DNA from: Patescibacteria group bacterium
GTDB lineage: Bacteria > Patescibacteriota > Minisyncoccia > UBA6257 > 2-01-FULL-56-20
Assembly: GCA_018971305.1 (NCBI GenBank)
Contig: JAGXBC010000001.1
Coordinates: forward strand, 31,408-95,407
Length of the DNA stretch: 64,000 nt
Direction of reading: 5' to 3'
Shown one piece after another: positions 9,810 to 63,225 of the stretch (positions are counted from its first letter, which is position 1; every line of letters begins with the position of its first letter). The position numbers and the translations under genes were made by a program. The notes under the pieces are model-generated. The model did not search any database, was not told the DNA's origin, and was given only the letters and a program-made list of their open reading frames with translations.

Positions 9810-11468
9810 TCAGTTCACTAAAACCTTTATTTTATTAGCGGCGGAAGGCATATTTTTCAGCCATACAGGCCACAAAGAAATTTTAGCATTCACCAAGTGC
9901 GGCAGACCGGTAATAAGCTTTTGAGCATCATCCACGCTCTTACCCAATATTTGCGCCACAAAATCATCGGCGGAGAAATCCGGCTTCAACGTTCCTTTTG
10001 CCGTCAGGTCAAACGACTCGCTACCTTTAATTAAATCAACTTGTACTTTTCCATATGTGAGATCTAGGGAGTCAAACACCATTCCCGGATTGTCCTTTTG
10101 CGCTAAAGCCGTCAGCACGGACTTCAAATCGGATTCCTTAAAGCCGACCGTCTTCATATTGGCTTCGCCGAAAACATTAAAAGTGCCGCTGGCGTTGGCG
10201 ATAGCATCGGCACTTAATTTTGTAATGGTAATAGACGATGCTCCTTCCAATATTTTAAAATCAGCGGGGTAAGAGGAGAGGAAGCTGCTGTTTAACCTGG
10301 TTGTTAAAAGATCCGACACTCTTGCCTTAGACTTACTTATATCCCCTGCAGTAGGAACCGCGCTGAATCCGACAAACCCTCCGCTTGTGGGAATTTTTAT
10401 TCCCCCATAAAACCCGGCGTAGCGCGGCGTACCCTGAAAACCGGGAATAGTAAGCTTGGCAATCGGTCCGACGTTGTAGCTGACACCGGCTTTATCAGCA
10501 ATGATATTCGCATCAATGCTTGATGGGGTAATCTGACCATTTTTGATTACGGCTCCCGGAACAATAACTTGGTTAATTATTCTAAATATTTTTCCATCGG
10601 GAGTCGCAAAACGGGTAGTGGCCACAAGAGTTTGCGGAGCGGAGCTGTAGGCATTGTAAATAGTAATTTTCCCCGTTGCCTTCTCGGAAACCGTGCTGGA
10701 ACCAGAAGCTGGAAATGGCTGGACCATATTGGTCTGCGGGGTAAAGAATTCCGCCGGCAAAATATTGTTATCGGCATTTATTTTTGCAACAGCGGAATCC
10801 GCTGTAAATTGATGTTCATAAGACCAAGGCGTCCTCCGAAAATTTATCTGGATGGTTGCCCTGTTCAAGAATCTTCCCGTAACAAAAAACCCTGCGATTA
10901 CAAGAACCACAACGCCAATCACAAGCAAAGCCCTCTTTCCTCCAAGTTTAGGCAGGCGCAAGCGAGGCAGAGACATCCACTCTCTTGCTTTGGATTCCTG
11001 GGCCCGCTCTTTCCTTCCTACCCTAGCTTCCAAAATAACCTCTTCCTCCTCTTCTTCGCCTTCCGTTATGCTTGGTTTGAAATTATAACTAACTGGTTTT
11101 TCTTCCGCACGGCGATTAGGTTCCTTTTTTGACTTCCTGGATAATTGTTCCGGTCTGTTTTTTTTATCGCCAGCTATGCTAAGCGGCACAATATCTGAAA
11201 GTGCCGAACCCTTCCTGTCTAAAAGCGGATGAACCGCCTCCAAGTCGCTCGACTGCGCAAGCGCCAAAACGCTTTCATCAACGGATTCAATAGTCACGGT
11301 TTTACCGGCAGATTCGGCCTCTCTTTTTATAAGATGGAAGTTGCTCACCGAACCTCCCAAGGCAGCGTTTTTGGGAACAACTAAAGTTACGCTGTCTTCC
11401 TCGCTGCCGATGATCTTTTCAACTATTTCGGCAACGCCTTCGCTTTTATCTATAAAAAGTTTTTCCAT
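9810..11468 (-). CDS. Hypothetical membrane-anchored protein (552 aa from MEKLF; acidic N-domain, one TM helix, large extracytoplasmic domain)
   Basis: Start trimmed to the internal ATG that avoids overlap with the upstream gene. EEEEEE acidic stretch, then TM LLVIGVVVLVIAGFFV, then a Gly/Thr/Ser-rich domain. Confidence 0.5.
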   Translation of the reverse strand: MEKLFIDKSEGVAEIVEKIIGSEEDSVTLVVPKNAALGGSVSNFHLIKREAESAGKTVTIESVDESVLALAQSSDLEAVHPLLDRKGSALSDIVPLSIAGDKKNRPEQLSRKSKKEPNRRAEEKPVSYNFKPSITEGEEEEEEVILEARVGRKERAQESKAREWMSLPRLRLPKLGGKRALLVIGVVVLVIAGFFVTGRFLNRATIQINFRRTPWSYEHQFTADSAVAKINADNNILPAEFFTPQTNMVQPFPASGSSTVSEKATGKITIYNAYSSAPQTLVATTRFATPDGKIFRIINQVIVPGAVIKNGQITPSSIDANIIADKAGVSYNVGPIAKLTIPGFQGTPRYAGFYGGIKIPTSGGFVGFSAVPTAGDISKSKARVSDLLTTRLNSSFLSSYPADFKILEGASSITITKLSADAIANASGTFNVFGEANMKTVGFKESDLKSVLTALAQKDNPGMVFDSLDLTYGKVQVDLIKGSESFDLTAKGTLKPDFSADDFVAQILGKSVDDAQKLITGLPHLVNAKISLWPVWLKNMPSAANKIKVLVN

Positions 11469-11493
11469 ATACCAAATTATATCACGGAGCTTT

Positions 11494-12633
11494 TTATTGC
11501 ACCAACCAATGTATCCTCCTGCGCAGATGGTGGTTAATTTCCGAATCGCGCTTGTCGTAGTAGAACTCAAAAAATGGTGCCAGGCGCATAAAAATTTCGT
11601 TGGGCGGCATGGGCCAGTCGGCAAAATCCAATCCAAAACCGAATTTATCAAAGGCCTCCCTCGCCGGCAGATCATGGAGCGTAAATCGCCCGTAATTCAG
11701 AGGCGTATCTATCGGCAAAGGCAATAAAGAATGGAAAAACGTCTGTCCCTTGAGCCTGGATGACTTTAGACCGTTTAAGAAATTACTGACTTCCGGCTTC
11801 AATATTCTGTCCATAAATTTCTTAAAGCTTTCGGAAATATCTCCCGAAAGATACTTTCTGTAAATTAATTCCGCTGACTCCTGCCCAACATGGAAAGCCG
11901 AAATAATGCTGTCTATTAAAGAATTATGCCGCCAGTCAAATTTTTCTTCGTAAACAACATTTCCCCAGGCGGATTTCTCCAGAGAAAAACAGGATACTCC
12001 TCCGGAGCCGATTATAGCTAAATTCACAGGCGGCTGCTGAATTTTGGCAAGAGAAAAAAGCCCAGCCCGGGCTTCGGATGTAAAGAAAAATCCATCTCCG
12101 GAACCGAAGAAGTATTTTAGATAATCAAAAACAGGGCGGGCGGTAAAAGTAAGCCGCATCACGGCGCCGACTACCTTACCCGGGAAAGAAAGCGGGTTCA
12201 CGACATAGTGCCCGTCTATTTTAAAATTATCCACTTCGGCATTAACGAGTACGGTATCAAGTTCGTGCAGTCCTAAACGCCTCGCCGCCTCGGCCCTTTC
12301 CGGTCCGAATCCTTTGCCGATGGCCTGCGACAAGAGATTATCCAATTCGACCATATTCAGCTGTTTCGTGTGGTCGTCCGGCGCACGTTTCATTTCTATC
12401 GGATAAGAAACCGCCACCGCCAAAGAGGGGTCAGCCGAAACTATCATATTTCTTTTCCTTAATTTAGTTATTTTGGAATTGTGCCAGGTCTCCAAAGGAA
12501 ATTCTGCCCAAATTTTTTCCAGAGTAAGGTTCTTGTCTTTATCTAAACCCAAAAGCAAACCCCTTGTCTTCTGCGGAGCAATATCAATCAGAAGATATTT
12601 TTCTTTTGGGCGCCAGAACTTTAGGTCAATCAC
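11494..12633 (-). CDS. Hypothetical protein (379 aa)
   Basis: Long ORF tightly packed between alaS and the 552-aa gene; no firm motif (weak resemblance to actin-like ATPase N-termini, not relied on). Confidence 0.5.
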   Translation of the reverse strand: MIDLKFWRPKEKYLLIDIAPQKTRGLLLGLDKDKNLTLEKIWAEFPLETWHNSKITKLRKRNMIVSADPSLAVAVSYPIEMKRAPDDHTKQLNMVELDNLLSQAIGKGFGPERAEAARRLGLHELDTVLVNAEVDNFKIDGHYVVNPLSFPGKVVGAVMRLTFTARPVFDYLKYFFGSGDGFFFTSEARAGLFSLAKIQQPPVNLAIIGSGGVSCFSLEKSAWGNVVYEEKFDWRHNSLIDSIISAFHVGQESAELIYRKYLSGDISESFKKFMDRILKPEVSNFLNGLKSSRLKGQTFFHSLLPLPIDTPLNYGRFTLHDLPAREAFDKFGFGLDFADWPMPPNEIFMRLAPFFEFYYDKRDSEINHHLRRRIHWLVQ

Positions 12634-29565: not shown

Positions 29566-31815
29566 TTACTTCTTCAAAATCTCCCTGAATACCTCCGGCG
29601 ATAAACTCACCCTGCCCGTTTCTTTCAATCTTTTTTTGCCTCGCTGCTGTTTTTTCCAAAGCTTCATTTTCCGTGTTCTGTCGCCGCCGTTCTTCCCGAA
29701 ATCGCCGAGTGCTTTCTTCATCGCAGCAATCGTCTCGCGCGCGACAATCCTGCCCATAGCCCGAGCCTGCACCGCTTGGGAAAATTGCTGTTTCGGAAGG
29801 AGCTCTTTTAATCTTTCAACTGAGGTCCGCGCCTCGCGTTCCATATCTTTTTTGGCAACTATGCGAGTCAAAGCCGGCACGACTTCCTCCGCCACCAAAA
29901 TTTCCAATTTCTCAACCTCCGCTTCCGCCTCGCCGTCCAACTCGTAGCTGAACGACGCAAATCCAGCTGATACCGATTTCAACTTGTCATCAAAATCACG
30001 GATAAGTTCGGAAAGCGGCATGCGCGCGATTATGAGCAGATTGTCACCGATATTTTTTATCTCGGAAACTTCAATATCGAAAATTGTTTTAAGATTAACG
30101 ACTTGGCTAAGGTAGGCCTGAGGCGCGAGTATTTCCATTTTTATCATCGGCTGCCAGACACGCTCGGGCTTCATGGGAAATTCGTGCGGTTCCTTGACGA
30201 TAAAATCTTTTCCGCCGTCGCGTACTCGGTAAGCGATAGAAGGAAAGCTTGTTAAAAATTCCAGATTGAATTCTCTCTCCAGGCGGCTCGCAGTAATTTC
30301 AAAGTGGAGCTGACCCAAAAAACCCACTTTTAAACCTCTGCCCAGAGCTTCGTTCGCGTCGGGCTCAAAGCTCAAAGCGGCGTCAGTTAAACGCAAACGT
30401 TCCAACCCCCTCTGTAAATCTTCAAATTTTGTATCTCCGTCCGGATAGAATGCTATAAAGACTACCGGCGCTGGCTCTTTATATCCATGCAATTGCTCCG
30501 CCTTTGAACCTGCAATCGCAATAGTGTCTCCAATATGAACTAGCGCTGGCTCCTTTAGCCCTGTTGCCACATAGCCCATTTCATCGGGACCTATCGCCGG
30601 GGTCGCCTTCAGTTCCGGAGAAAAATAACCGACCTCCTTGATTTTGAATTTTGCTCCCGTGGCGAGAAGAACAACTTCGCTTCCGGAATTAATAGAATTG
30701 TCGCTTACGCCGGGGAAAACCCGCACGAAAGCCAATATGCCTTTGTGATCGTCGTACAAAGAATCAAAAATCAAAGCACGCGGCTCTTGGCCTCCGGTAT
30801 CATCAATTTTTTTAGGCGGCGGCGTTTGCTTCACGACGCCACCCAAAAGTTCTTTAACTCCTTCGCCGGTCTTCGCAGAAATCCTGAATATCTCTTCTTC
30901 TCCAACTCCGAGTAAGTCCGCGGTTGCCTTAATCACTTTATTTATATGAGGCAGGTCCAGGTCTATTTTATTTACTGCTCCGATAATAGTAAGCCCGGCT
31001 TTTCGTGCCGCACGCAAATTAGAAAGTGTCTGCGCCTGGATTCCTTTCGCGCCGTCAATTAAAAGTACTGCCCCTTCAACTGCCGTTAATGCCCGCGAGA
31101 CCTCGTAAGAAAAATCGCTGTGGCCCGGGGTGTCAATCAGGTTGAGTATATACTCAACCTGCTCAGATTTTCGCAGATCAGACGCAGATGTACGCCGATC
31201 GCGAGCGGAATCGTAAACAATTCTTTCGATTTCAACGCCCTTGGGAGCAAAGTTGATCAAGAGAGATATTTTATAATCAGAACCTCGCAGATAAGACCAG
31301 GCTTGTTTTTTTTCGGTATCGCCAATAAAGGGCAGGGCTTTAAGCTCAATTAAAACCTCCTTATTGATCAGCAGGTCAGGATAATAATCGCCAACAGGTT
31401 TATCATCGTATTGTATTTTTAAATGCGGTTGGGCAATAAAATCAACGCCCCGACTTTTTAGCTCAATCTCCAAGGATTTCTGATATACCGATTCACGAAA
31501 TCCTGGACCAATTTTATTCCAAACATCAAAAGCAGCTCCTCGTATTTTGTAGGTTAATTCCTTGTATAAAAATTTGGTATCTGCGTTTATCTGCGTATCA
31601 TCGGCGTTAATCTGCGCAGGATGCTTATAGAGCATCCTGACGGGCGCCATTTTTATAGTAATCCCCCGCTCGCGCTCCAATTCCAATTTATCCAAATACT
31701 GCGGTTTCATCCGCCGCGCGTCCACCGTTCCCGTAATCTCCAAAAGTCGATCCGCCAAAGTTGATTTACCGGAGTCAATATGCGCGATAATTACGAAGTT
31801 TCTTATATTCTCCAT
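29566..31815 (-). CDS. lepA: Elongation factor 4 (LepA) with an in-frame ~156-aa GxxExxY / PD-(D/E)XK-like insertion in the G domain
   Basis: G1 AHIDSGKST, G2 RGITIK, G3 DTPGHSDF, and the LepA-specific C-terminus GDRTRKMKLWKKQQRGKKRLKETGRVSLSPEVF. Between G2 and G3 (residues ~66-221, nt ~31153-31620) lies a GxxExxY-family module GPGFRESVY...YPDLLINKEVLIELK. Start placed at MENIRNF. Confidence 0.85.
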   Translation of the reverse strand: MENIRNFVIIAHIDSGKSTLADRLLEITGTVDARRMKPQYLDKLELERERGITIKMAPVRMLYKHPAQINADDTQINADTKFLYKELTYKIRGAAFDVWNKIGPGFRESVYQKSLEIELKSRGVDFIAQPHLKIQYDDKPVGDYYPDLLINKEVLIELKALPFIGDTEKKQAWSYLRGSDYKISLLINFAPKGVEIERIVYDSARDRRTSASDLRKSEQVEYILNLIDTPGHSDFSYEVSRALTAVEGAVLLIDGAKGIQAQTLSNLRAARKAGLTIIGAVNKIDLDLPHINKVIKATADLLGVGEEEIFRISAKTGEGVKELLGGVVKQTPPPKKIDDTGGQEPRALIFDSLYDDHKGILAFVRVFPGVSDNSINSGSEVVLLATGAKFKIKEVGYFSPELKATPAIGPDEMGYVATGLKEPALVHIGDTIAIAGSKAEQLHGYKEPAPVVFIAFYPDGDTKFEDLQRGLERLRLTDAALSFEPDANEALGRGLKVGFLGQLHFEITASRLEREFNLEFLTSFPSIAYRVRDGGKDFIVKEPHEFPMKPERVWQPMIKMEILAPQAYLSQVVNLKTIFDIEVSEIKNIGDNLLIIARMPLSELIRDFDDKLKSVSAGFASFSYELDGEAEAEVEKLEILVAEEVVPALTRIVAKKDMEREARTSVERLKELLPKQQFSQAVQARAMGRIVARETIAAMKKALGDFGKNGGDRTRKMKLWKKQQRGKKRLKETGRVSLSPEVFREILKK

Positions 31816-31890
31816 GATGTGAGTGTACAAATAAAAATGGCCATCCACAAGGAATGGCCGGTAAAACATAACAAACACCCGACTCGGTCT

Positions 31891-32112
31891 TCAGCGACTG
31901 AAAGGCAATGATATTGTACGGCTAACTTCTGCCTCTTTGACGCCGTCAAACTCTCTATGTATCTTAACCCGCAACTCAATAGAGGTTTCTCCGGAAAAAC
32001 CATAACTTCCAAGAGCTTCTACAAGCTTCTGCAAATCTCTTTGGATGCACTTCTCGCCGGCATTGATCATTTTTGTCATCGACTGCCTATTCTCATTAGT
32101 CATTGTTACCAT
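31891..32112 (-). CDS. Hypothetical small protein (73 aa)
   Basis: ORF between lepA and the 684-aa gene; no motif. Confidence 0.3.
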   Translation of the reverse strand: MVTMTNENRQSMTKMINAGEKCIQRDLQKLVEALGSYGFSGETSIELRVKIHREFDGVKEAEVSRTISLPFSR

Positions 32113-48410: not shown

Positions 48411-49508
48411 TCAAAAATCTTCCTTGCCTGCCTGGCCGTGATCGGCCGCCGCATATTCGCGGAACAACAAGCCTTTTCCCCTCGCTCGTTCCCGCGCTTC
48501 TTTTGTAAGGAATATCAACTGGCCATTATTATTCAAATCGCCCTCAAATTCATCCGCAATCTTGTTGTTATAATCCAAGTGGGCCTGATAAGCAGCCGGG
48601 TTATCTTTAAAGGCTTCCTGCGGCCAAATATTATTCCAGCGGTAAAACGCGCGCACAGTCTGCATCACATCTATCTTGCTCGGCGGCTGCTGGCCGAAGC
48701 TGTCAATCATCAAGTGTTCCGGCGCTTCACCGGAACCCTCTGCGGGCAAACCGGTATCCTCATCAAAATCCAGAGCCGGCTGAACATATTTAACTTCTTC
48801 GTATTTTTTCGGATCTTCCGGATTTTCCATATACGAACGGCTCCAGCCGACTTTGTTCCAAAAATTTTCCGAAGTATACGTAAATTCCCCGGCGGCGAAA
48901 GCCAGCTCTTTGCCATCACTCTCGGCATCAATTGCGGAATCCATAATAGCCGAGGTATAAGCTTCACGGGCCAATCCTCCCTGCCTGCATTCCTTGTCGG
49001 TAACGGCATAAGCGACCATAAACATCTTCTTCCCCGTAGGCTTATTCTGCTCGTCGTATAAATCCAAAGAACCACCGGTTACGGTAGAGACGACCTTGCC
49101 CTCGGCGTTCTTAACAACAAAAACTTTATAAACTACACCGTCTTTAGTGCCAAAAGGAGTTTTTCCTTCTACGGCAGCCCTTAAAATTTCTTCCGAGTCA
49201 ACTTCTTCTTTACCGAACGTTCTTTCAAATAATCCCTGCACTTCGGTGAGTTCGGGGCTGTCCGAACGTTCAATTGCTTCAATCTTGAATTTATCGCCGT
49301 TAATTTCAATTTCTCCCGAAGGAGAGTCCGGACTCTGGCGAGAAAATTTGCTTTCGCGCTGCAACTTCTTAACGGTCCGCCAAACAGGCCGGCTCTTCGC
49401 GGCCTCTACCATGCATTCTTCGCATTTATCTCCGCGCGCAACGCCATGAGGGCATAAGGCCCCCTCTGAAGATTTCCCCAAATTGATACCTATATGCTCA
49501 AAGCCCAT
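48411..49508 (-). CDS. Hypothetical protein with N-terminal zinc-ribbon (CPHG...CEEC) and a GNAT-like acyltransferase-fold core
   Basis: CPHGVARGDKCEEC at the N-terminus; a GNAT motif-A-like segment MFMVAYAVTDKECRQGGLAREAYTSAI; acidic C-terminal domain. Confidence 0.45.
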   Translation of the reverse strand: MGFEHIGINLGKSSEGALCPHGVARGDKCEECMVEAAKSRPVWRTVKKLQRESKFSRQSPDSPSGEIEINGDKFKIEAIERSDSPELTEVQGLFERTFGKEEVDSEEILRAAVEGKTPFGTKDGVVYKVFVVKNAEGKVVSTVTGGSLDLYDEQNKPTGKKMFMVAYAVTDKECRQGGLAREAYTSAIMDSAIDAESDGKELAFAAGEFTYTSENFWNKVGWSRSYMENPEDPKKYEEVKYVQPALDFDEDTGLPAEGSGEAPEHLMIDSFGQQPPSKIDVMQTVRAFYRWNNIWPQEAFKDNPAAYQAHLDYNNKIADEFEGDLNNNGQLIFLTKEARERARGKGLLFREYAAADHGQAGKEDF

Positions 49509-51073: not shown

Positions 51074-51844
51074 ATGGTAATCCGTAGGTGGGAACACGAA
51101 GTATTCGATATTTTGCCACAGGAGAGAAGGGCAAATATAGACATAGTTTCCAGCGCCTATAGTTCCGTGCTTGGAGATAAGGCATACCTGTCAATGCCCA
51201 TCACAAGCGGGAAAAGATATTACGAAATTCTTGATCATTATGGCGTCAAAACAGTAGAAGAGTTGGAGAAAAAAATCCCCGGGGCTCTGCGTGAAGAGAT
51301 TATCATACCCAACATAGATGATGGTAAAAAATTCGCCGAGCGATTGGCGCCAGAACTTGATTCGTCTCTTATAGTTCCAGCCATATTCGAAGCCCGCAGA
51401 CAACGCTGGACCCAAGAAGAATACATGGTTCTCTGGCTTCGCCTGCTTACCAAATCAGTCAAAGAAATATATCTTCTTGACGGCTGGGAATACTCCAACG
51501 GCGGTGCGATTGAATTCGCTCGCGGACTGATGATTCGCTATCGTTTTATCGAAGAACGCAATGACCGCCTCCTGATCTACGATCATAAGAAACGGCCGGT
51601 CAGCATAGAAGAAGGAGCAAGAAAATTGACCGAGGCGATAAAAGACCTAACGCGGAGAGGACATCAAACAAGTACTCTGCGCAAAGAACTTGGCAGGGTT
51701 GCCGGCATCGCGGCATATTGCAACGATTATCTAACCAGCCGAGATAAATGGGCCTACCATGCCAACGGAATCGGATTGAATTCAGGCGCAACTATCACTG
51801 CAGCCAAATCTGTCGGCGCAATGATAGCACTAACACGGGATTAG
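51074..51844 (+). CDS. Nucleoside 2-deoxyribosyltransferase-like (DUF4406-like) protein
   Basis: YLSMPITSG and LLDGWEYSNGGAIEFARGL resemble the deoxyribosyltransferase-like catalytic Glu/Gly region; extra ~90-aa C-terminal extension. Confidence 0.45.
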   Translation: MVIRRWEHEVFDILPQERRANIDIVSSAYSSVLGDKAYLSMPITSGKRYYEILDHYGVKTVEELEKKIPGALREEIIIPNIDDGKKFAERLAPELDSSLIVPAIFEARRQRWTQEEYMVLWLRLLTKSVKEIYLLDGWEYSNGGAIEFARGLMIRYRFIEERNDRLLIYDHKKRPVSIEEGARKLTEAIKDLTRRGHQTSTLRKELGRVAGIAAYCNDYLTSRDKWAYHANGIGLNSGATITAAKSVGAMIALTRD

Positions 51845-51902: not shown

Positions 51903-52361
51903 TTACGCCAATCGCTTCAGTAATTCCTCCGGAGTTGAAACTGCTTCGTGAATAAGCTTCTGGCTGGACGGCTCTTCGTAGAGGTCGTTGGGATAACTCC
52001 CCATCAGCGTTTTCGGATTCAACGCATAGCACATTTTCCCGGCCATGGCTGCGGCGAACAATTCTCCGGTGGTATTAACTCCCAGATAACCGTCTTTGTT
52101 AAAAATAAAACAAACGTCGGCAACCCGGACCTTGCGGAAAAGATGATCGTAAACTTTTCCGGCGACTGTTTCCCGGTAATTCGGTTCGTTCAACCTATCT
52201 TTTTCGTGCAGCTTCTCAAAATTCGGCGAACGGTCTTCAAAATTCGGTTCCAAAATAACAGGGTGCAATCCTTTTTCGGCTGCGACAATTTTTAATTGTG
52301 TTATAAATTCTCCTAACTCTTTTTTAAAACGGACGCTTGAACAAAAGACAACTGATTTCAT
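51903..52361 (-). CDS. Nucleoside 2-deoxyribosyltransferase family protein
   Basis: Classic YLGVNTTGELFAAAMAGK (D.GT..E.G.A.A.GK) motif near the C-terminus. Confidence 0.6.
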   Translation of the reverse strand: MKSVVFCSSVRFKKELGEFITQLKIVAAEKGLHPVILEPNFEDRSPNFEKLHEKDRLNEPNYRETVAGKVYDHLFRKVRVADVCFIFNKDGYLGVNTTGELFAAAMAGKMCYALNPKTLMGSYPNDLYEEPSSQKLIHEAVSTPEELLKRLA

Positions 52362-52454
52362 GTTTTTGATTAATTATAAGCCGCCACAGAACAAACTGTC
52401 CTGTGCACAACTCCATAAAAATCTTTGTTGGGGGTCAAATAATAGGAACTGCCC

Positions 52455-52883
52455 TCAGATAACGATTTTGAGAGCAGGAAAAATATATTGAAACCAGGCA
52501 GGATCACATTCTCCGCTTAAAACGAATAGCTTCATCTCGCTCGGGGACATAAACTTAAGGAATTTATGCTTATCCGGCTCCTTGAGTTCCGTCTGACCGG
52601 CAACAACCACCTCATAAACCCACCACTCATGAGCCGTATGCCCCTTTTTAGGACAGGGGTTGGGAAAAGTGTCATTCAAAACTAGCTTGGCGCTCGTTAC
52701 CGTAAGCCCGGTTTCTTCTATAAGCTCCCTTTTAAGGGCCTCTTCCGGCCCCTCACCGGGGTCAACATGCCCGGCCGGCAACGCTAAACCCAACGGATGC
52801 CTAAGGCGATACTGGGTCAAATATTCTCCTTGTTCATTCCTTATAATCGCACCTATGCTTTTACCGATATTTTCTTCCGACAT
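52455..52883 (-). CDS. NUDIX hydrolase
   Basis: Nudix box GHVDPGEGPEEALKRELIEETGL (Gx5Ex7REuxEExGu). Confidence 0.8.
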   Translation of the reverse strand: MSEENIGKSIGAIIRNEQGEYLTQYRLRHPLGLALPAGHVDPGEGPEEALKRELIEETGLTVTSAKLVLNDTFPNPCPKKGHTAHEWWVYEVVVAGQTELKEPDKHKFLKFMSPSEMKLFVLSGECDPAWFQYIFPALKIVI

Positions 52884-52931
52884 AATATTACTTGATTATT
52901 GACGACTTGGAGCATAAAGTAAAGCTAATAA

Positions 52932-54215
52932 ATGCCCAAACGCTCCATACATACCCCCAAAGTCGTCGCCGACCCTCTTTACGGCATAATCGACATCCGC
53001 CCCGTCCTGCCAATGATAGAAACGGAAGAATTCCAGCTACTCGGAGACAAGCGCCAGCTCGGAATGTCTTACCTTACCTTTCCTTCGGCTACACATACCA
53101 GGCGCGCGCATTCTTTGGGAGCATATCACGCAACAAGAGAATTGGCGGACCGCTGGCTGGAATTCTGATTAATAAACGATAAAGAGGCCGACGCTCTGTC
53201 CGGCTACGCTCTTTACCACGATATCGGCCACCCGGCATTCTCCCATGTGACGGAAGATCTCTGTAAAATGGACAACGACGGCCTGGGATTGCAAATAATC
53301 AAAGGTCTTAGAAAACCGATAGAAGCCTGCGGCATAGATTATGATCTTCTGAAAAAAATGGCGAGTCACGATAATCCGCTATATCTCGCAGTACATGATA
53401 AAAATCTAGGGATGGAAAAGTTGGACTACTTGGAACGCGACGGACTCTATACCATACTCGCCCGCCCGGCCGGTATTGAATATCTACGGAGGCACGTTTA
53501 CTTCATTAACGGCGAGCTCGCGATTGACGAGAAGGTCATTGATAACGCTGTAGAAGCCCAGAATTTTTATATGAAAATGTATAAAAATGTTTATCTGCGA
53601 AAAAGTTCAGCCATCGCCCAAAGAATGGTGCAAAAAATGGTTTACCACCTTATAGCCGCGGGGGAAATAACCGTGGATGACCTGCCGAAACTAACGGATT
53701 CGGAGCTCGTGGGCTTTATATACTTTTCCCGAGATGAGACCGTAAAGACTCTCTATAGATTTCTGCGACGCCGTGACCTGTTCCGCGAAGCGATAATCTT
53801 CCGACCGGAAGCGTTCGCCAAATCGGAAGAAAAAAATGGCAAGTCCGTGAAAGTATTCGGGGTTACTAGCGGGGAAATAAAGGGGCTGACCTCTTCCCCC
53901 TCGCTCAAACAAAAAAATCTCTCCGGCCTAGAAGAATTGGAGGGTAAAATTGCCGCTTTATCCGGTATTCCCAAAAATTCAGTTCTGATAGTACCAGTTT
54001 TCAACCCCGATCGTTTCACGGCCAAGGATATAAAAATATATAAAAGTAATGGTAACCCGGAATCTCTCCAGAAACTCCTCCCGGCGCATTTCAAGAATAT
54101 GGAAGAAATTGCCCACTCCTACTGGACCTTGCGCATCTGCACTCAAGAACAATACAGAAATACTTTAAGTTCACCGAAGGTGGCCAAAGAAATTTTTGAC
54201 CTGCTCATAAAATAG
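52932..54215 (+). pseudogene. HD-domain phosphohydrolase (COG1078 / dNTP triphosphohydrolase-like) interrupted by a single in-frame TGA at 53166-53168
   Basis: ORFs 52932..53168 and 53247..54215 are in the same frame. Between them the frame reads ...ATHTRRAHSLGAYHATRELADRWLEF*LINDKEADALSGYALYHDIGHPAFSHV..., so the stop falls between the His motif and the HD motif of one HD domain. Confidence 0.6.
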
Positions 54216-54251
54216 CTGCCTCCGTCATGGCGGTCGTCATCGTTATCTTCT

Positions 54252-54881
54252 CTAAAACAACCCGCTTACTGTCTGCCAGATTTTTTCATGCAAAGTCTGC
54301 TGCGACTTAGTCGCATCCAATATTATCCAATGCTTTCTATCCGCGCGAGCCTGAGACAAAAATCCTTTCCGCACCAGATTATGGAATGCTATTTTCTCTT
54401 TCTCGAACGATGTCGCCTTCTTGATCCTGCGCATAAGTTGCGCCGGGTTGCCATCTAACAGGAAAATAATATCTGGGTAATATTTTTGCCTTACCGTTTC
54501 GTCCACAATTTTCATAATTTTCTCGTGTGTCTTAATGAGACCACGGCCGTATCCCTGATAGGCGAAAGTAGAACCAAAATTCCTGTCTTGGATAATATCG
54601 AAGCCGCCCTGCAAAAAAGGGATAATGTTCTGCTTATAGTCCAGAGATCTGTCGGACTCAAACAACAGAAACTCGGATAAAGGATCGAGCTCTCCCTGTG
54701 AACCCAGTAAAATATTACGGATCTTAAAACCTGCCGATGTGGATCCGGGTTCGTCGTTATATTTCACCTGCCGGCCTAATCTTTTTAATCTTTGGAATAA
54801 AAGAGTTGTCTGAGTAGTTTTCCCAGAACCCTCTCCACCCTCGAAAACTATGAATAATGGTTTTTGTTTTTGCCAAGGCAT
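54252..54881 (-). CDS. tmk: Thymidylate kinase
   Basis: P-loop FIVFEGGEGSGKTTQ; DR(N/Y) and lid regions present. Confidence 0.85.
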   Translation of the reverse strand: MPWQKQKPLFIVFEGGEGSGKTTQTTLLFQRLKRLGRQVKYNDEPGSTSAGFKIRNILLGSQGELDPLSEFLLFESDRSLDYKQNIIPFLQGGFDIIQDRNFGSTFAYQGYGRGLIKTHEKIMKIVDETVRQKYYPDIIFLLDGNPAQLMRRIKKATSFEKEKIAFHNLVRKGFLSQARADRKHWIILDATKSQQTLHEKIWQTVSGLF

Positions 54882-54903
54882 GACTTTATTAATATATTAC
54901 AGA

Positions 54904-54937
54904 AAAATAACAAAAATGCCGAGTGGACAACTCGGCA
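54904..54937 (-). terminator. Rho-independent terminator downstream of rplK
   Basis: Stem tgccgag(54917-54923)/ctcggca(54931-54937), followed on the minus strand by TTTTTGTTATTTTTCT. Confidence 0.6.
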
Positions 54938-54962
54938 GATGATTACAATCAGGACTCTTTCA

Positions 54963-55388
54963 TTAATTCACGACCTCAATCCCCATGTTCCTCGCAGTTC
55001 CTTCTATTGTCCTCATCGCGGCTTCAATATCGTTGGCATTCAAATCAACCATCTTTTTTTCGGCAATTTTCCTGATGTCGGCTTTGGTTACCTTGCCAAC
55101 CTTGATTTTAAGGGGGTCGCTGGAGCCCTTTTCAATGCCGGCCGCTTTTTTGAGCAATGCCGAAGCGGGTGGGGTTTTAAGCTTAAAAGTGAAAGTCCTG
55201 TCTTCGTAGATGGTGATTTCGGCGGGAACGACGTCGCCCGTCATATCCTTCGTCATATCGTTGAATTTCTTGCAGAAATCCTGGATATTCACGCCCTGAG
55301 GCCCTAAAGCCGTACCTATCGGAGGCGCGGGGTTAGCTTTACCGGCTTCTATCTGTATTTTTAAAATTGTTTTAACTTTTTTAGCCAT
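54963..55388 (-). CDS. rplK: 50S ribosomal protein L11
   Basis: [34 protein letters not shown]...[12 protein letters not shown], typical of L11. Confidence 0.9.
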
Positions 55389-56469: not shown

Positions 56470-59400
56470 CTACTCGGTTTGCGATTCTTTTGCAACTTCT
56501 GGAACGGGAGCCTGAAGCTCCGATACTTCATCATCGGAATCACCGGCTCTTTTCACCTTAATCTCTCCGGAAGGTATTAATCTGCCTATAATCACATTTT
56601 CTTTAAGCCCGCGCAGATTATCGGTCCTGCCCTCGATAGCCGCCTTCACTAAAACTCTTGCCGTATCCTGGAAAGACGCTGCGGCAAGGAAACTATCGGA
56701 AGAAATAGCAACCCGCGTTATGCCTAATAGAATTTCTTCGGCCTTAGCAACCTTGAGACCCTGTTTTTTAAGTTCTTTATTGACGTCCATCAGCAAAGCT
56801 TTTTCAATGATTTCCCCCATGACAAAATCCGAAGCATCTCCGGCATCCTTGATTTTAACCCTGGAGAACATCTGCTTGATGATAACTTCTATGTGCTTGT
56901 TGTTTATAGAGGCACCTTCGGAGAGATAGATCCTTTGAACTTCGTTCACAACGTAGCGCTCAACTTCCCTTACGCCTCTGAATTCCAAAAGTTCTCTCAA
57001 GTCAATGTGACCCTCGGAAATCTGCTGGCCTTTTTCAATTTTATCTCCGGCTTTCACGAACAAAAGAGCGGAACGCGGCACCGAGAACTCCTGGGCTTTT
57101 TTCTTTTTGGTTTTCTGAGGATTTTTTTCCAATAGTTTTATTATCTTGCTCGTCCCCTTTTCTTCTATAACATCAATCGAGCAATCAAAGGGAGCTAAAA
57201 TAGCCTTGCCTTTCGGCGGGCGGACTTCAAAAATTTCTTCCACGCGCGGCAAACCGTGGGTGATGTCCACTCCGGCAACACCTCCGGTGTGGAAAGTTCT
57301 CATCGTAAGCTGCGTTCCAGGTTCACCGATTGATTGCGCGGCAAGTACCCCTACCGCTCCACCCAGTTTAACCGGTTCATTGCTGCCGAGATCCAGTCCG
57401 TAACAAGTGGCGCAAAGACCGTAAAGAGTTTTACAGTAAATAGCCGAACGAACTTTAACTGATTCCAATTTGGATTTATCCAGCATCTCGGCTATCGCTC
57501 TTGTGATCACTTCTCCGGCGCGAACAACGATCTTCCTGTCGATTCTTATGTCTTCTAAAGCTGTTCTTGAGAACACTCTGCTAGAAAAAGACTGATTGAA
57601 TTCTTTCCCGTCTTTGCGCAAAATTTCTATCCCCTCTTTCGCGCGGCAATCGTTTTCCCTGATTATGAGATCCTGAGAAACATCAACCAAACGCCTGGTA
57701 AGATATCCTGCTTGTGCAGTTTTTAAAGCCGTGTCCGTAGTACCCTTTCTAGCGCCGGTAGTGGAAATAAAGTATTCCAAAACAGAAAGACCCTCTTTAA
57801 AAGATGATTTGATAGGCAATTCAATCGTTTCTCCTTTCGGATTAGCCACCAATCCTTTCATACCCAACATCTGTATCGGCTGAGCCCAGGAACCGCGCGA
57901 ACCGGAATCGATAATCTGGTAGATGGAATTGTTCTTCGGCAGGGAAGTGGCAACAAGCTTGGCAATGGTTTCCTTCGCTTTTTCCCAGACGCTGATTGTC
58001 CGCGCCCTGCGCTCGGATTCGGTAAGCAAACCCTCGTTCCACTGATCGTGAACAATGTCTATTTCTTTTTCTGACGCTCTGATGATATCTTCCTTTGTGC
58101 CAGGTGCGACAAGGTCGGATATTGCCCAAGTGATTCCAGACCTTGTGGCCATATCAAAACCGAGTGATTTTACCTCATCCAAAACCTCGCGAGTCACCTT
58201 TAATCCGCGGCTCTCCAATATCTTTTCAATAATAGAAGTAAGTTTTTTCTTGTTAATCGTGTCATTTACAAAATCCGCAGCGCCGCACAGGGCTTTATTA
58301 AACATCAACCGGCCCAAGGTTGTTTTTATTCCCTGGGATAATATCGGGTCGTGAAGCTTCAGGCTCCCTGACTCGTAGGCCAATACCGCCTCATCAAAAC
58401 CGGACATAGCTTTTATAAGGGCTTGGTTATCTTCTTTTATAAGTGTCAGATAATAAATACCGAGGACGACATCCTGGGTCGGATTGGTAATAAGATCACC
58501 GGTAGCTGGTTTCAAAAGATTTTGTCCGGCAGACATTATAGTAGCTGCTTCGTGCTGGGCATTCTCAGAAAGCGGCAGGTGGAGAGCCATTTGGTCACCA
58601 TCGAAGTCGGCGTTAAAAGCCGCGCAAACAAGCGGCGGAACGTGTATGGCTAATCCCTCAACAAGAAGCGGCCTGAAAGCCTGTACGCTCAAACGATGCA
58701 AGGTAGGAGCCCTGTTCAATAGAACCCATTTGTCTTTTATAATTTCTTCCAAAATCGCCCAAACCTCGTCACCGCCTTCTTCCATGAAGCGATTGGCGCT
58801 CCTGATGTTATGGGCCAATCCTCTTTTCATAACTTCGCTCAAAACGAACGGACGGAAAAGTTCCAAGGCCATTCGCTTGGGAACTCCGCACTCGTCAATT
58901 TTCAATTTAGGACCGACGACAATAACCGAACGGCCGGAGTAATCAACTCTTTTACCCAAAAGGTTCTGGCGGAACCTTCCTTGTTTGCCCTTAAGCATAT
59001 CTGCAAGGGAACGAAGCGGACGGCGCTGAGCGGACAATTGCTGCGTGCCGAAACGGGCAGAATTATCTATGAGGGCATCAACGGATTCCTGGAGCATTCT
59101 TTTCTCATTCCTCACGATCACATCTGGAGCTTTGATCTCCAAAAGCTTCTTCAAACGGTTATTGCGGTTGATGACGCGCCGATATAGGTCATTAAGATCG
59201 GATGTCGCATAGCGGCCGCCGTCCAGCGCGACCATCGGGCGCAGATCCGGAGGCAAAACCGGCAAAACATTAATTATCAGCCATTCCGGACGAGCCTGGT
59301 TCTTTATCATGGAACGGAACATCTTCAGGCGGCGCAATAATTTACCCTGGGTAAGCGGGTCTTTCGCGCCTTCAAGCTCTTTTTCTATCTCTCTCATCTC

Positions 59401-62400
59401 TTTTCTCAGATCCATTGACTTCAAAATTTCATATACGGCTTCTGCGCCGCTGCCCGCTTTGAACACATCGCCGAAGCGGCGGGAGAGATTGAAATATTCG
59501 GTCTCGCTCAAAACCTGGCCAACGCTAAGGTTTTCCAGGTAATTTCCGGTAACATCTGCTGCCTCGTTAAGTTCCTGTTTGGTCTTTTTGTCTTTGCCGC
59601 CAATCTTCAATTTACCCTTGAGCTGACGATTCAGGTCTTCCAAAGCCTGCTTCCTCAATTCTTCGTTAACCTCCGTGACAATATAAGCGGAGAAATAAAT
59701 AACTCTTTCCAGCTTTGTAGAAGGAACGTTAAGGGTCAGACTGAGGCGCGAGGGAACGCTCTTCAGAAACCAAATATGGCTGACCGGAGCTGCCAAGGCA
59801 ATGTGCCCGATTCTTTCGCGCCGCACGACAGCTCTTGTTACTTCAACACCGCACTTGTCGCAGACGACACCCTTATAACGAATCCTCCTGTACTTACCGC
59901 AATAGCATTCGTAATCTTTAGTCGGACCGAAAATTCTTTCCGAGAACAATCCGTCTTTTTCCGGACGCTGAGTTCTATAATTAATAGTTTCCGGTTTAAC
60001 CACCTCACCGTGTGACCATTTTAGAATATCTTCTGGAGAAGCGACGCTGATTTTAAGAGACTTGAAATCCTCCTTACGGGACATTTCTGACTCGTATGTC
60101 GGCTGAATATTAAAACACAACGATTTCAACTCGTTCACTAAAACATTGAAAGATGCCGGAAGATTCGGTTCCTTAATGGATTCGCCTCGAATAATAGACT
60201 CGTAAGCGGCGGCCCGTCCTAAGACATCATCCGACTTAATGGTCAGCATTTCCTGCAGGGTGTGGCGTGCCCCGTATCCCTCTAGGGCCCAGACTTCCAT
60301 TTCCCCGAAACGCTGCCCGCCGAATTGAGCTTTGCCGCCAAGCGGCTGTTGCGTAATTAAGGAATATGGTCCGATAGAACGCATATGCGCTTTATCTTCC
60401 ACTAAATGGTTGAGCTTCATGATATAAACCTGTCCGACCATTACCTTATTATCGAACTGCTTACCGCTCCTGCCGTCGTAAAGGGCAACCTTGCCGTCTT
60501 CGGGAAGCCCGGCTTTCTTTAATTCTTCTTTAATCTCCTCTTCGCTAGAAGAATCTAATCCGGGAGTAATGGCCCGATAACCGAGACGCTGGGCGGCCCA
60601 GCCTAAGTGAGTTTCCAAAATTTGCCCCAAGTTCATACGCGAAGCGACGCCAAGCGGATTCAAAATAATGTCTACCGGTGTCCCGTCTTCAAGATAAGGC
60701 ATATCTTCCACGCGCCTTACCTGGGAAATAACACCCTTGTTTCCGTGCCTGCCGGCAAGCTTATCTCCGGCCTGCACCTTACGAAGCTCAGCCACCTCAA
60801 CCTGAATTCTCTTGATGATTCCCGGCTCCAGCTTATCTCCTTTCTCACGGTCAAAAACCTTGATGTTCACAACGCGTCCGCGCTTGCCGTGAGGCAAGGT
60901 AAGAGACGTATCTTTCACATCGCGCGCTTTCTCTCCGAAAATAGCCCTGAGCAACCGCTCTTCAGAAGTAAGCTCGGCTTCGCCTTTCGGAGAAATTTTA
61001 CCAACCAAAATATCGCCGGATCTGACTTCTGCTCCGATTCTTACAATTCCTTCCTCGTCCAGATTCCTCAGTTTCTCCTCGGAAACGTTCGGGATGTCTG
61101 GTGTTGTGAGTTCCGGACCGAGCTTCGTGTCACGGACATCGTGGTAATAATCTTCTATATGGATGGAGGTGAATAGGTCGTCGCGCACAACCCGTTCAGA
61201 AAGAATAATTGCGTCCTCAAAATTCGCGCCTTCCCAAGACATGAACGAGACAAGAAGATTCTGTCCGAGAGCGAGCACTCCATTATCAATAGACGGCCCG
61301 TCAACCAAAACCTCTCCCTTCTTAACCGACTGTCCGGAGACGACAAGCGGCCTCTGGGATATACAGGTGAATTGGTTGGATCTCTTGAATTTTTCCAGTA
61401 TATAATTTTTTACGCTCTTAGCGTATTTAACTTTTACGTGGTTGCCATCCGATTCCAGGATCTTTCCATCCGCTTCGGCAATAACAACATAACCGGAATC
61501 GCGCGCCACTCTGTCCTCTTCTCCGGTGGAAACATAAGGAGCGTTCGGCCTAACGGAAACGACAGCTTGACGCTGCATGTTAGAACCCATCAGAGCGCGA
61601 TTGGCATCGTCGTGCTGCAAGAAAGGTATTAAAGATGTTGCCACGCTTACAAACTGATGGGGAGCAATGTCCGTAAAATCAAGGTCTTTGGGAGCGCAGG
61701 TGCTCGGCGCGCCATGAACTCTCGCCTCTACCAAATCTCCGGCAATATTGCCTTCGGGATCTTTTGCAACTCCCGCATGCGTAATTTTGTATTTCTCTTC
61801 TTCCAGGGCATCCAGCCAAACTATTTCTTCAGTAATACGACCGTTTTTAACCCTCGCGTAAGGCGTCTCTAAAAAACCGAAATCATTAACCCGAGCAAAG
61901 CTTGCTAAATAGTTGATGAGGCCGATATTGGCGCCTTCCGGAGTCTGAATCGGACAAATCCTGCCGTAATGCGAACGATGAACGTCACGCACTTCAAAGC
62001 TGGCGCGTTCGCGAGTAAGTCCGCCGGGGCCCAAAGCCGAAATTCTGCGCTTGTGTTCCAGCTCTGCCAATGGATTTACCTGGTCCATAAACTGCGAAAG
62101 CTGTGAGGATGCAAAAAACTCCTTGATAACCGCCGAGACGGGACGGAAATTAATTAGCTGCGCCGGCATCAGACGTTCCTTCTCTTCTGTGGACATCCTG
62201 TCCTGAATAATTCTGCGCAGGCGGGCGAAACCTATTCTTAATCTTCCTTGCAGCAACTCGCCAACAGCTTTAAGCCTTCTGTTTCCAAGGTGATCAATGT
62301 CGTCTGGCTGGGCGGCTGGATCATTATTTAAAGATATTATCTCGCGCACAATGCCGATGATGTCATCAAGGTCAAGAAGACGGTTATCTTTTTTACTGCC

Positions 62401-63225
62401 GAACTTCAACCGCTGATTGGTTTTGAAGCGGCCCACCGGAGACAGGTCGTATCTGTCCAAACGCTGGAACATAGCATCAATCAAGCTCTTGGCCGTTGCC
62501 GGCGTCGCCGGGTCACCCGGGCGCAAACGGCGGTAAATTTCCATATACGATTCATCAACGTTCTTAGCTACATCTTTTTTAAACGTAGCTTCAATATATT
62601 TGGCACCAACGCCGGGGAAAGCGTCTTTGATCTTATCCTCTTCCATACCGAAAATACGAAGCATATCTGTAACCGGCACCTTGCGGCGACGGTCGATTTT
62701 AACATGTATGGCTCCGTCCAAGTCGGTTTCAAATTCCAGCCAGGCACCCCTATTCGGAATAACCTTGGCCCCAAAAAGCTGCCTGCCCCTCGTAGGGACG
62801 GCGGTAAGATAAACCCCAGCCGATCTGATAAGCTGAGACACGACAACACGCTCAACGCCGTTAATAATAAAAGTGCCGCGCTCGGTCATTATCGGAAATT
62901 CCCCAAAATAAACTTCTTGCGTTTCCTTGTGGCCAGTTTTCTTGCTCTCCAGAGTAAGCTTTATGCGCAACGCTGCTTCATATGTGGCATCGCGATATCG
63001 CGCAGTGGCTTCGTCGTACTTAGGTTCATCAAAATGGTAATCACTGAAGCTCAATTCCAGTTCCTTACCGGTGTGGTCATAAATAGGAGAAATCTCGTCC
63101 AATAGTTCCCGTAATCCCTTTTTAAGGAACCACTCATAAGATTTCAACTGAGTCTCATTCAGATTGAATGGCTTGATGAGGGACTGGGATTTAGAGAAGT
63201 TTTTGGTTGATAAAAATTTAGGCAT
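56470..63225 (-). CDS. rpoBC: Fused DNA-directed RNA polymerase beta-beta' subunit (RpoB-RpoC in one 2251-aa ORF)
   Basis: The N-terminal ~1020 aa carry RpoB motifs ([29 protein letters not shown]; ...[48 protein letters not shown]). After the short linker [14 protein letters not shown], RpoC follows: zinc finger [35 protein letters not shown] catalytic loop. No stop or frame change occurs across the junction (~60.07-60.10 kb). Confidence 0.9.

Follow-up and report, generated by a model that had tools for sequence, protein, structure and literature searches.

Bacterial and eukaryotic HD phosphohydrolases of the SAMHD1/EF1143/BT4208/Aq_1910 type combine an HD domain with an HD_assoc_2 region and carry metal ligands in an H...HD...D arrangement. 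The gene described here shares these features, as well as the fold modelled for a 73%-identical orthologue, but its sequence identity to these proteins is 17-20% and its reading frame is interrupted by a TGA at a position where relatives mostly encode glycine. In genetic code 25, used by the Gracilibacteria/Absconditabacteria/JAEDAM01, UGA occurs frequently in frame at glycine positions and does not terminate genes, and UGA-to-Gly recoding has been reported as restricted to the Gracilibacteria/JAEDAM01 lineage (PMC13293708). Our case resembles code 25 in having UGA at a Gly-conserved position and in belonging to the same phylum, yet the pattern that defines this code is not what we found: the interrupted gene is one case in ~18,450 codons, TGA terminates 12 of the 52 other predicted genes of the window (by which we mean the whole 64,000-nt stretch of DNA analysed, from a Patescibacteria group bacterium), no tRNA-Gly(UCA) is present in the window, and the recoded clade does not include this Paceibacteria-like lineage. 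Ordinary bacterial nonsense pseudogenes offer a further comparison, as here too a single base change appears to disable a gene at a conserved syntenic locus, leaving two pieces that are annotated as separate 'hypothetical proteins'; the difference is that no secondary decay is yet visible, which makes the mutation either young or only partly disabling. We put the probability that the locus represents a recent, population-wide nonsense allele, null or strongly hypomorphic, at about 0.8, and such an allele is an ordinary kind of gene knock-out, involving no new decoding.

The interrupted frame runs from 52932 to 54215 on the forward strand (428 codons, counting the terminal TAG at 54213-54215) and contains a single internal stop, the TGA, with 78 sense codons before it, starting from an ATG, and 348 after it (427 aa if read through; Table 1). 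The original prediction had described two ORFs in the same frame, separated only by this TGA and giving ~427 aa when joined, and both its coordinates and its sequence proved exact. It had further identified the product as an HD phosphohydrolase with the stop between its His and HD motifs, and this reading was borne out as well: the TGA lies between the first His of the HD domain (His60, in AHSLG) and His96-Asp97, following the residues RELADRWLEF and preceding LINDKEADALSGYALYHDIGHPAFSHV, and it cuts off 82% of the protein, the HD motif included. The start and sequence of the N-terminal piece are colinear with those of the orthologues (MPRRQIHTPKVVADP...), and the downstream piece contains His96-Asp97, His100, His105 and Asp165 (in KLDYLERD); no single encoded fragment holds all the HD metal ligands. 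ORF calling found no canonical start between the TGA and a GTG at 53247, which, together with an ATG at 53268, constitutes the first canonical starts after the stop, both of them 3' of the HDIGHPAFSH motif. It is at this ATG that the deposited 315-aa protein (P0005, locus tag KGJ89_00430) begins, the 78-aa piece being deposited separately as a hypothetical protein (KGJ89_00425), and the two share one 319,838-bp contig (record 'MAG: Patescibacteria group bacterium'). Counts of internal promoter, terminator and antisense features near the stop equalled those expected from shuffled sequence.

Table 1. Features of the interrupted HD phosphohydrolase gene and of the inverted repeat that ends on its mutated base
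Feature	Position	Strand	Content or basis
N-terminal 78 codons of the HD phosphohydrolase gene	52932..53165	+	beta-hairpin, first helices, metal ligand His60
In-frame TGA at codon 79, in place of a conserved Gly codon	53166..53168	+	orthologue alignment
Remaining 348 codons and TAG	53169..54215	+	HD motif, KLDYLERD motif, HD_assoc_2 region
Left arm (AGAATTCCAGC) of a perfect 11-nt inverted repeat	53027..53037	+	repeat finder
Right arm (GCTGGAATTCT) of the 11-nt inverted repeat	53156..53166	+	last base is the mutated T

Joined across the masked stop, the 427-aa sequence matched Pfam HD (PF01966) at 27.8 bits (cut-off 22) and HD_assoc_2 at 49.1 bits (cut-off 23.1), and the invariant columns of the PF01966 superfamily, namely His60, His96-Asp97 and Asp165, are all retained in it. 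It aligned across the stop to the intact BT4208 (2q14, E 6.5e-22) and to Aquifex O67745 (Aq_1910, 2hek, E 1.5e-19), deposited in the PDB under the names 'Phosphohydrolase' and 'Hypothetical protein', respectively, and, among further PDB sequence matches, to E. faecalis EF1143 (2o6i) and SAMHD1. The 73%-identical orthologue (P0001) was modelled with AlphaFold (pLDDT 89.7, pTM 0.89), and Foldseek matched the model over its whole length to 2q14, 9mr6, 3irh/4lrl (EF1143) and both fungal and human SAMHD1 (E 1e-16 to 1e-12, TM 0.65-0.72); by this fold and by the HD-associated C-terminal region of the joined sequence, the product falls among the SAMHD1/EF1143-type proteins. Based on the Pfam domains, the alignments to solved proteins and the fold match of the model, we assign the gene product as a SAMHD1/EF1143-like HD phosphohydrolase, and the fold predicts a dNTPase activity for the intact protein; enzymes of this type split dNTP into deoxynucleoside and triphosphate and are allosterically activated by nucleotides. 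Residue 79 falls, in the P0001 model, within a five-residue turn (78-82) that joins helix 57-77, which carries His60, to helix 83-95, which leads into His96-Asp97.

Two narrower assignments were considered and rejected. The model for Dgt-type dGTP triphosphohydrolases (TIGR01353) scored 21 bits against an NCBIfam cut-off of 152.35, and the match to an anti-phage dGTPase defence gene in PADLOC was weak and partial (E 2.6e-6, residues 33-109). Synteny of the form gatB ... HD ... L11-SSB-S6 is conserved in many of the genomes fetched, and the HD gene belongs to the clade's vertically inherited core; this conserved core setting suggests a housekeeping role rather than one in defence.

We searched 5.8 billion protein clusters and obtained 1140 homologues, the best 119 of which, the gene's own 315-aa fragment aside, are single proteins of 424-465 aa, with the best-listed ones coming from Patescibacteria, Paceibacteria, Liptonbacteria and Parcubacteria. 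One protein falling in the same cluster as the 78-aa fragment (P0122) was considered as a possible allele and rejected, as it is a distant intact orthologue. In addition, 80 loci were fetched from GTDB representative genomes and 80 from JGI metagenomes, giving, with the same organism left out, 155 orthologous loci that cover codon 79. The gene is uninterrupted at this codon in all 155 and a stop occurs there in none, so that the possibility that the two halves are normally separate genes, which would have undone the original prediction, was rejected: the orthologues are always one gene. Glycine occupies the position in 121 of these loci (GGT in 40, GGA in 36, GGC in 33 and GGG in 12), the others having Gln (10), Lys (9), Asn (5), Arg (4), Asp (3), Tyr (2) or Ser (1), and a direct comparison with one relative (L024) sets its GAATTC GGA TTGATCAAT against GAATTC TGA TTAATAAAC in the window. 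Because the orthologues are unsplit, mostly have Gly at this position (often as GGA) and never a stop, the simplest history would be a single G->T transversion at 53166 that changed GGA (Gly79) to TGA. A comparison of codons among orthologues had been proposed as a check, with TGG or TGY as the pointer to a point mutation; the point mutation stands, but the expected codons do not, since the ancestral one was apparently GGA.

A few orthologues carry lesions of their own. One (L108, VFSW01138452.1) has a TAA at query position 407, inside the conserved stretch RICTxE-stop-YR, four stops interrupt a degenerate stretch of another (L064), and in two more (L130 and L039) the gene is frameshifted. Such lesion-bearing orthologues make up ~3% of the loci and may be real pseudogenes or assembly errors; with four examples at hand, disruption of the HD gene appears not to be rare.

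The state of the interrupted gene was assessed by comparison with 47 orthologues, leaving the query out and taking as near-invariant those columns at least 90% conserved. The window sequence keeps 83/83 invariant and 82/84 near-invariant columns (165/167, 98.8%), the two exceptions being Ile->Val and Ala->Ser, and intact orthologues subjected to the same leave-one-out procedure retain a mean of 97.1% (range 89-100%). All 43 conserved columns 5' of the stop are kept, and no further stops or frameshifts were found in the HD gene. Relative to the nearest orthologues, at ~73% identity, synonymous sites are saturated, and the sequences from the same species do not differ from one another. The absence of further decay indicates that the mutation is recent relative to the divergence of the species, or else that some selection persists.

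What we observe is a stop codon early in the frame, where the intact, single-gene orthologues have a sense codon, and this is the hallmark of a nonsense pseudogene. The G->T change at 53166 would have turned the Gly79 codon from GGA into TGA, upon which translation would terminate after 78 residues, and products restarted at GTG 53247 or ATG 53268 would lack both His60 and His96-Asp97. As the 78-aa and the restarted products would both be incomplete, the enzyme is probably lost or reduced to basal UGA leakiness, and a loss of function of the HD phosphohydrolase is what the sequence predicts. Conservation of this gene among the reduced genomes of the CPR, at a constant place in the chromosome, makes it slightly unexpected to find a fixed null allele that has not decayed further, and residual function is possible.

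The explanations that compete with a recent nonsense allele concern either the reality of the stop or its consequences. Errors do occur in MAG consensus sequences, isolated lesions are found on other orthologous contigs, and G->T is the typical artefact of oxidative damage, all of which would suit a sequencing or assembly artefact in a genome that truly reads GGA. This is contradicted by the recurrence of the allele: the split into 78-aa and 315-aa proteins is found under three NCBI MAG accession pairs (MBU6500289/90, MDE2014986/7 and MDE2226415/6), and the TGA is also present in two Logan assemblies, namely in a 7,983-bp contig of SRR32006850, of which the 6,023 nt retrieved match the window at 100% identity, and in a contig of SRR32006840, these assemblies representing separate runs and an assembler different from that of the MAGs. 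With the same allele in three MAG records and two Logan assemblies, a random consensus error is very unlikely and the lesion, judged from the assemblies, is very likely real; this recurrence, in every assembly available, also indicates that the allele is carried by the whole sampled population, in which a minority intact allele may exist alongside it. The artefact reading, to which we give little credence, is further weakened by the searches for an unbroken allele from the same species: neither the 5.8-billion-cluster protein set nor the GTDB representative genomes nor the JGI metagenomes yielded one, their best matches being 71-73% identical. Among the alternatives named in the original prediction, sequencing error thus recedes, whereas a recent nonsense pseudogene agrees with orthologues that are one gene with Gly (often GGA) and with the undecayed remainder of the frame.

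A real stop might still be overcome during translation. The gene is otherwise perfectly intact, the allele persists across several assemblies, UGA is the leakiest bacterial stop, and it falls here in a surface turn at which orthologues show G, D, K, N, R, Q, Y or S; each of these points would fit a functional decoding of the UGA, whether by Trp read-through, by a Gly suppressor tRNA or by a ribosomal hop, that keeps the gene under selection. The stop is, however, confined to this organism among the 155 orthologous loci, and TGA behaves in this window as the true stop it had been predicted to be: besides terminating the 12 genes mentioned above, it is absent in frame from 18,024 other codons, a set that includes a 2251-aa rpoB-rpoC ORF and 1,278 Gly codons, as compared to 398 and 472 occurrences in the other two frames, and on these grounds a whole-genome reassignment of UGA was rejected. 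One candidate for a second in-frame TGA (31891-31893, reverse strand, with 75 open codons upstream of the GTPase gene at 29566-31878) was also rejected, because the GTPase gene starts at MENIRNFVIIAHIDSGKST and the stretch upstream of it is unrelated. The window's only tRNA is Gly(CCC), and prfB is not among its annotated genes. The base following the TGA (+4) is T/U, and a +4 U is the strongest context for UGA termination in E. coli; the 101 nt around and after the stop are predicted to fold no better than shuffled sequences (z = -0.63), and Rfam gave no family match in 52000-55000, bar one chance-level match elsewhere. The suggestion of programmed read-through therefore found no support, with a stop unique to this organism, in a terminating context and accompanied by neither a structure nor an Rfam element. 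That the stop landed on a Gly codon is unremarkable, since GGA makes up 28% of the window's sense codons that lie one step from TGA, and, while UGA is indeed read as Gly elsewhere in the phylum, this recoding is reported to be confined to the Gracilibacteria/JAEDAM01 (PMC13293708). Taken together, functional decoding seems unlikely, and we see only a very slim chance that UGA is usefully decoded (as Gly via a UCA-anticodon tRNA, or as Trp) in this lineage outside the code-25 clade. If it were, a reassignment of UGA might have been caught here while still early and ambiguous, at a codon conserved for glycine; alternatively, a leaky stop might deliberately hold the gene at very low expression. 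The locus would bear on the beginnings of stop-codon reassignment only if decoding of the UGA were demonstrated. Insertion of selenocysteine, for which the in-frame UGA is the sole point in favour, can be set aside for practical purposes, as the orthologues have Gly and never Cys at this position and a downstream hairpin is absent (the z value given above), with no SECIS match in Rfam and a location in a surface turn, away from the active site. It is also highly improbable that the gene now encodes a split enzyme, in which the 78-aa piece and a C-terminal fragment, re-initiated at the in-frame AUA 53172 or CUG 53196 (8 nt past AAAGAGG), reassemble into an active HD domain. The break does fall in an inter-helix turn, and the Shine-Dalgarno-like AAAGAGG at 53181-53187 does lie 5' of the in-frame CTG; but AUA and CUG are very poor initiators, the GAGG stretch is conserved coding sequence for K-E-A, none of the orthologues is split, and the annotated C-terminal ORFs start 3' of the HD motif. 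Furthermore, a Shine-Dalgarno-like 4-mer is found 4-20 nt upstream of the start in just 9 of the window's 52 predicted genes, so this lineage seems to rely little on such pairing.

Under the preferred reading, that of a recent nonsense allele, the 78-aa and 315-aa 'hypothetical proteins' should be re-annotated as one disrupted SAMHD1-like gene, a pseudogene. A natural knock-out that recurs across several assemblies suggests, moreover, that a conserved enzyme is dispensable in at least one Paceibacteria population.

The sequence surrounding the stop hints at how the mutation may have arisen. The mutated T is the last base of a perfect 11-nt inverted repeat, whose arms are separated by 118 nt (Table 1); with the ancestral G, the repeat would extend over 10 nt and then meet a mismatch. 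Quasi-palindrome template-switch mutagenesis leaves its mark where an imperfect palindrome has been corrected from a template, and the lengthening of a perfect repeat from 10 to 11 nt by the new base is in line with such a process, hinting at a template-switch origin of the G->T change. The left arm would be the possible template, and such an origin predicts an ancestral GCTGGAATTCG opposite AGAATTCCAGC. In L002, a relative whose gene is intact, the repeat is present in a shorter form (GAATTCCA), and GGT comes next. Positions that abut a perfect inverted-repeat arm of at least 10 nt with a partner within 300 nt account for 0.64% of the window, and the coincidence amounts to ~0.2% (0.64% multiplied by a 1-in-3 chance of the right base), an estimate that is post hoc and uncorrected. 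In contrast to typical quasi-palindrome hotspots, the 118-nt spacing of the arms is long, and the ancestral sequence in this post hoc test is a reconstructed one. The pattern hints at a real mutation rather than a sequencing error, and the repeat ending on the mutated base constitutes a small candidate case of templated mutagenesis in an uncultured bacterium.

The flanking genes had all been described as intact nucleotide-sanitation genes. The identity of the NUDIX gene (family match E 7.8e-19) and of the thymidylate kinase gene (E 1.3e-38) was confirmed, but that of the two 'deoxyribosyltransferases' was not, in Pfam, NCBIfam or PDB sequences. The forward-strand ORF at 51074-51844 gave a match to DUF4406 that stayed below the threshold (19.6 bits, cut-off 22; E 1.2e-3), and the 152-aa ORF on the reverse strand at 51903-52361 matched nothing in any of these three collections; of the relatives fetched, L029 alone shares it, at 83% identity.

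Several further features of the window (46.4% GC) were recorded. Its 55 ORFs use TAA as a stop in 25 cases, TAG in 17 and TGA in 13. The genes rpoB and rpoC form one unbroken 2251-aa ORF at 56470-63225 on the reverse strand, with a junction near 60082-60084, where the beta-like part ends in NIQPTYESE and is followed by beta'-side sequence with no stop between them. Fusions of the beta and beta' subunits of RNA polymerase are known in Helicobacter and Wolbachia, and a literature search for fused rpoB-rpoC in Parcubacteria found nothing. Three reverse-strand ORFs, at 9810-11675, 11494-12633 and 48411-49508 (621, 379 and 365 aa), had no Pfam match. The first two of these overlap by 182 nt as called and were considered as a second broken gene, a possibility that was rejected, since the downstream one most likely starts at an internal Met (MEKLFIDKSEG...), making them two separate genes.
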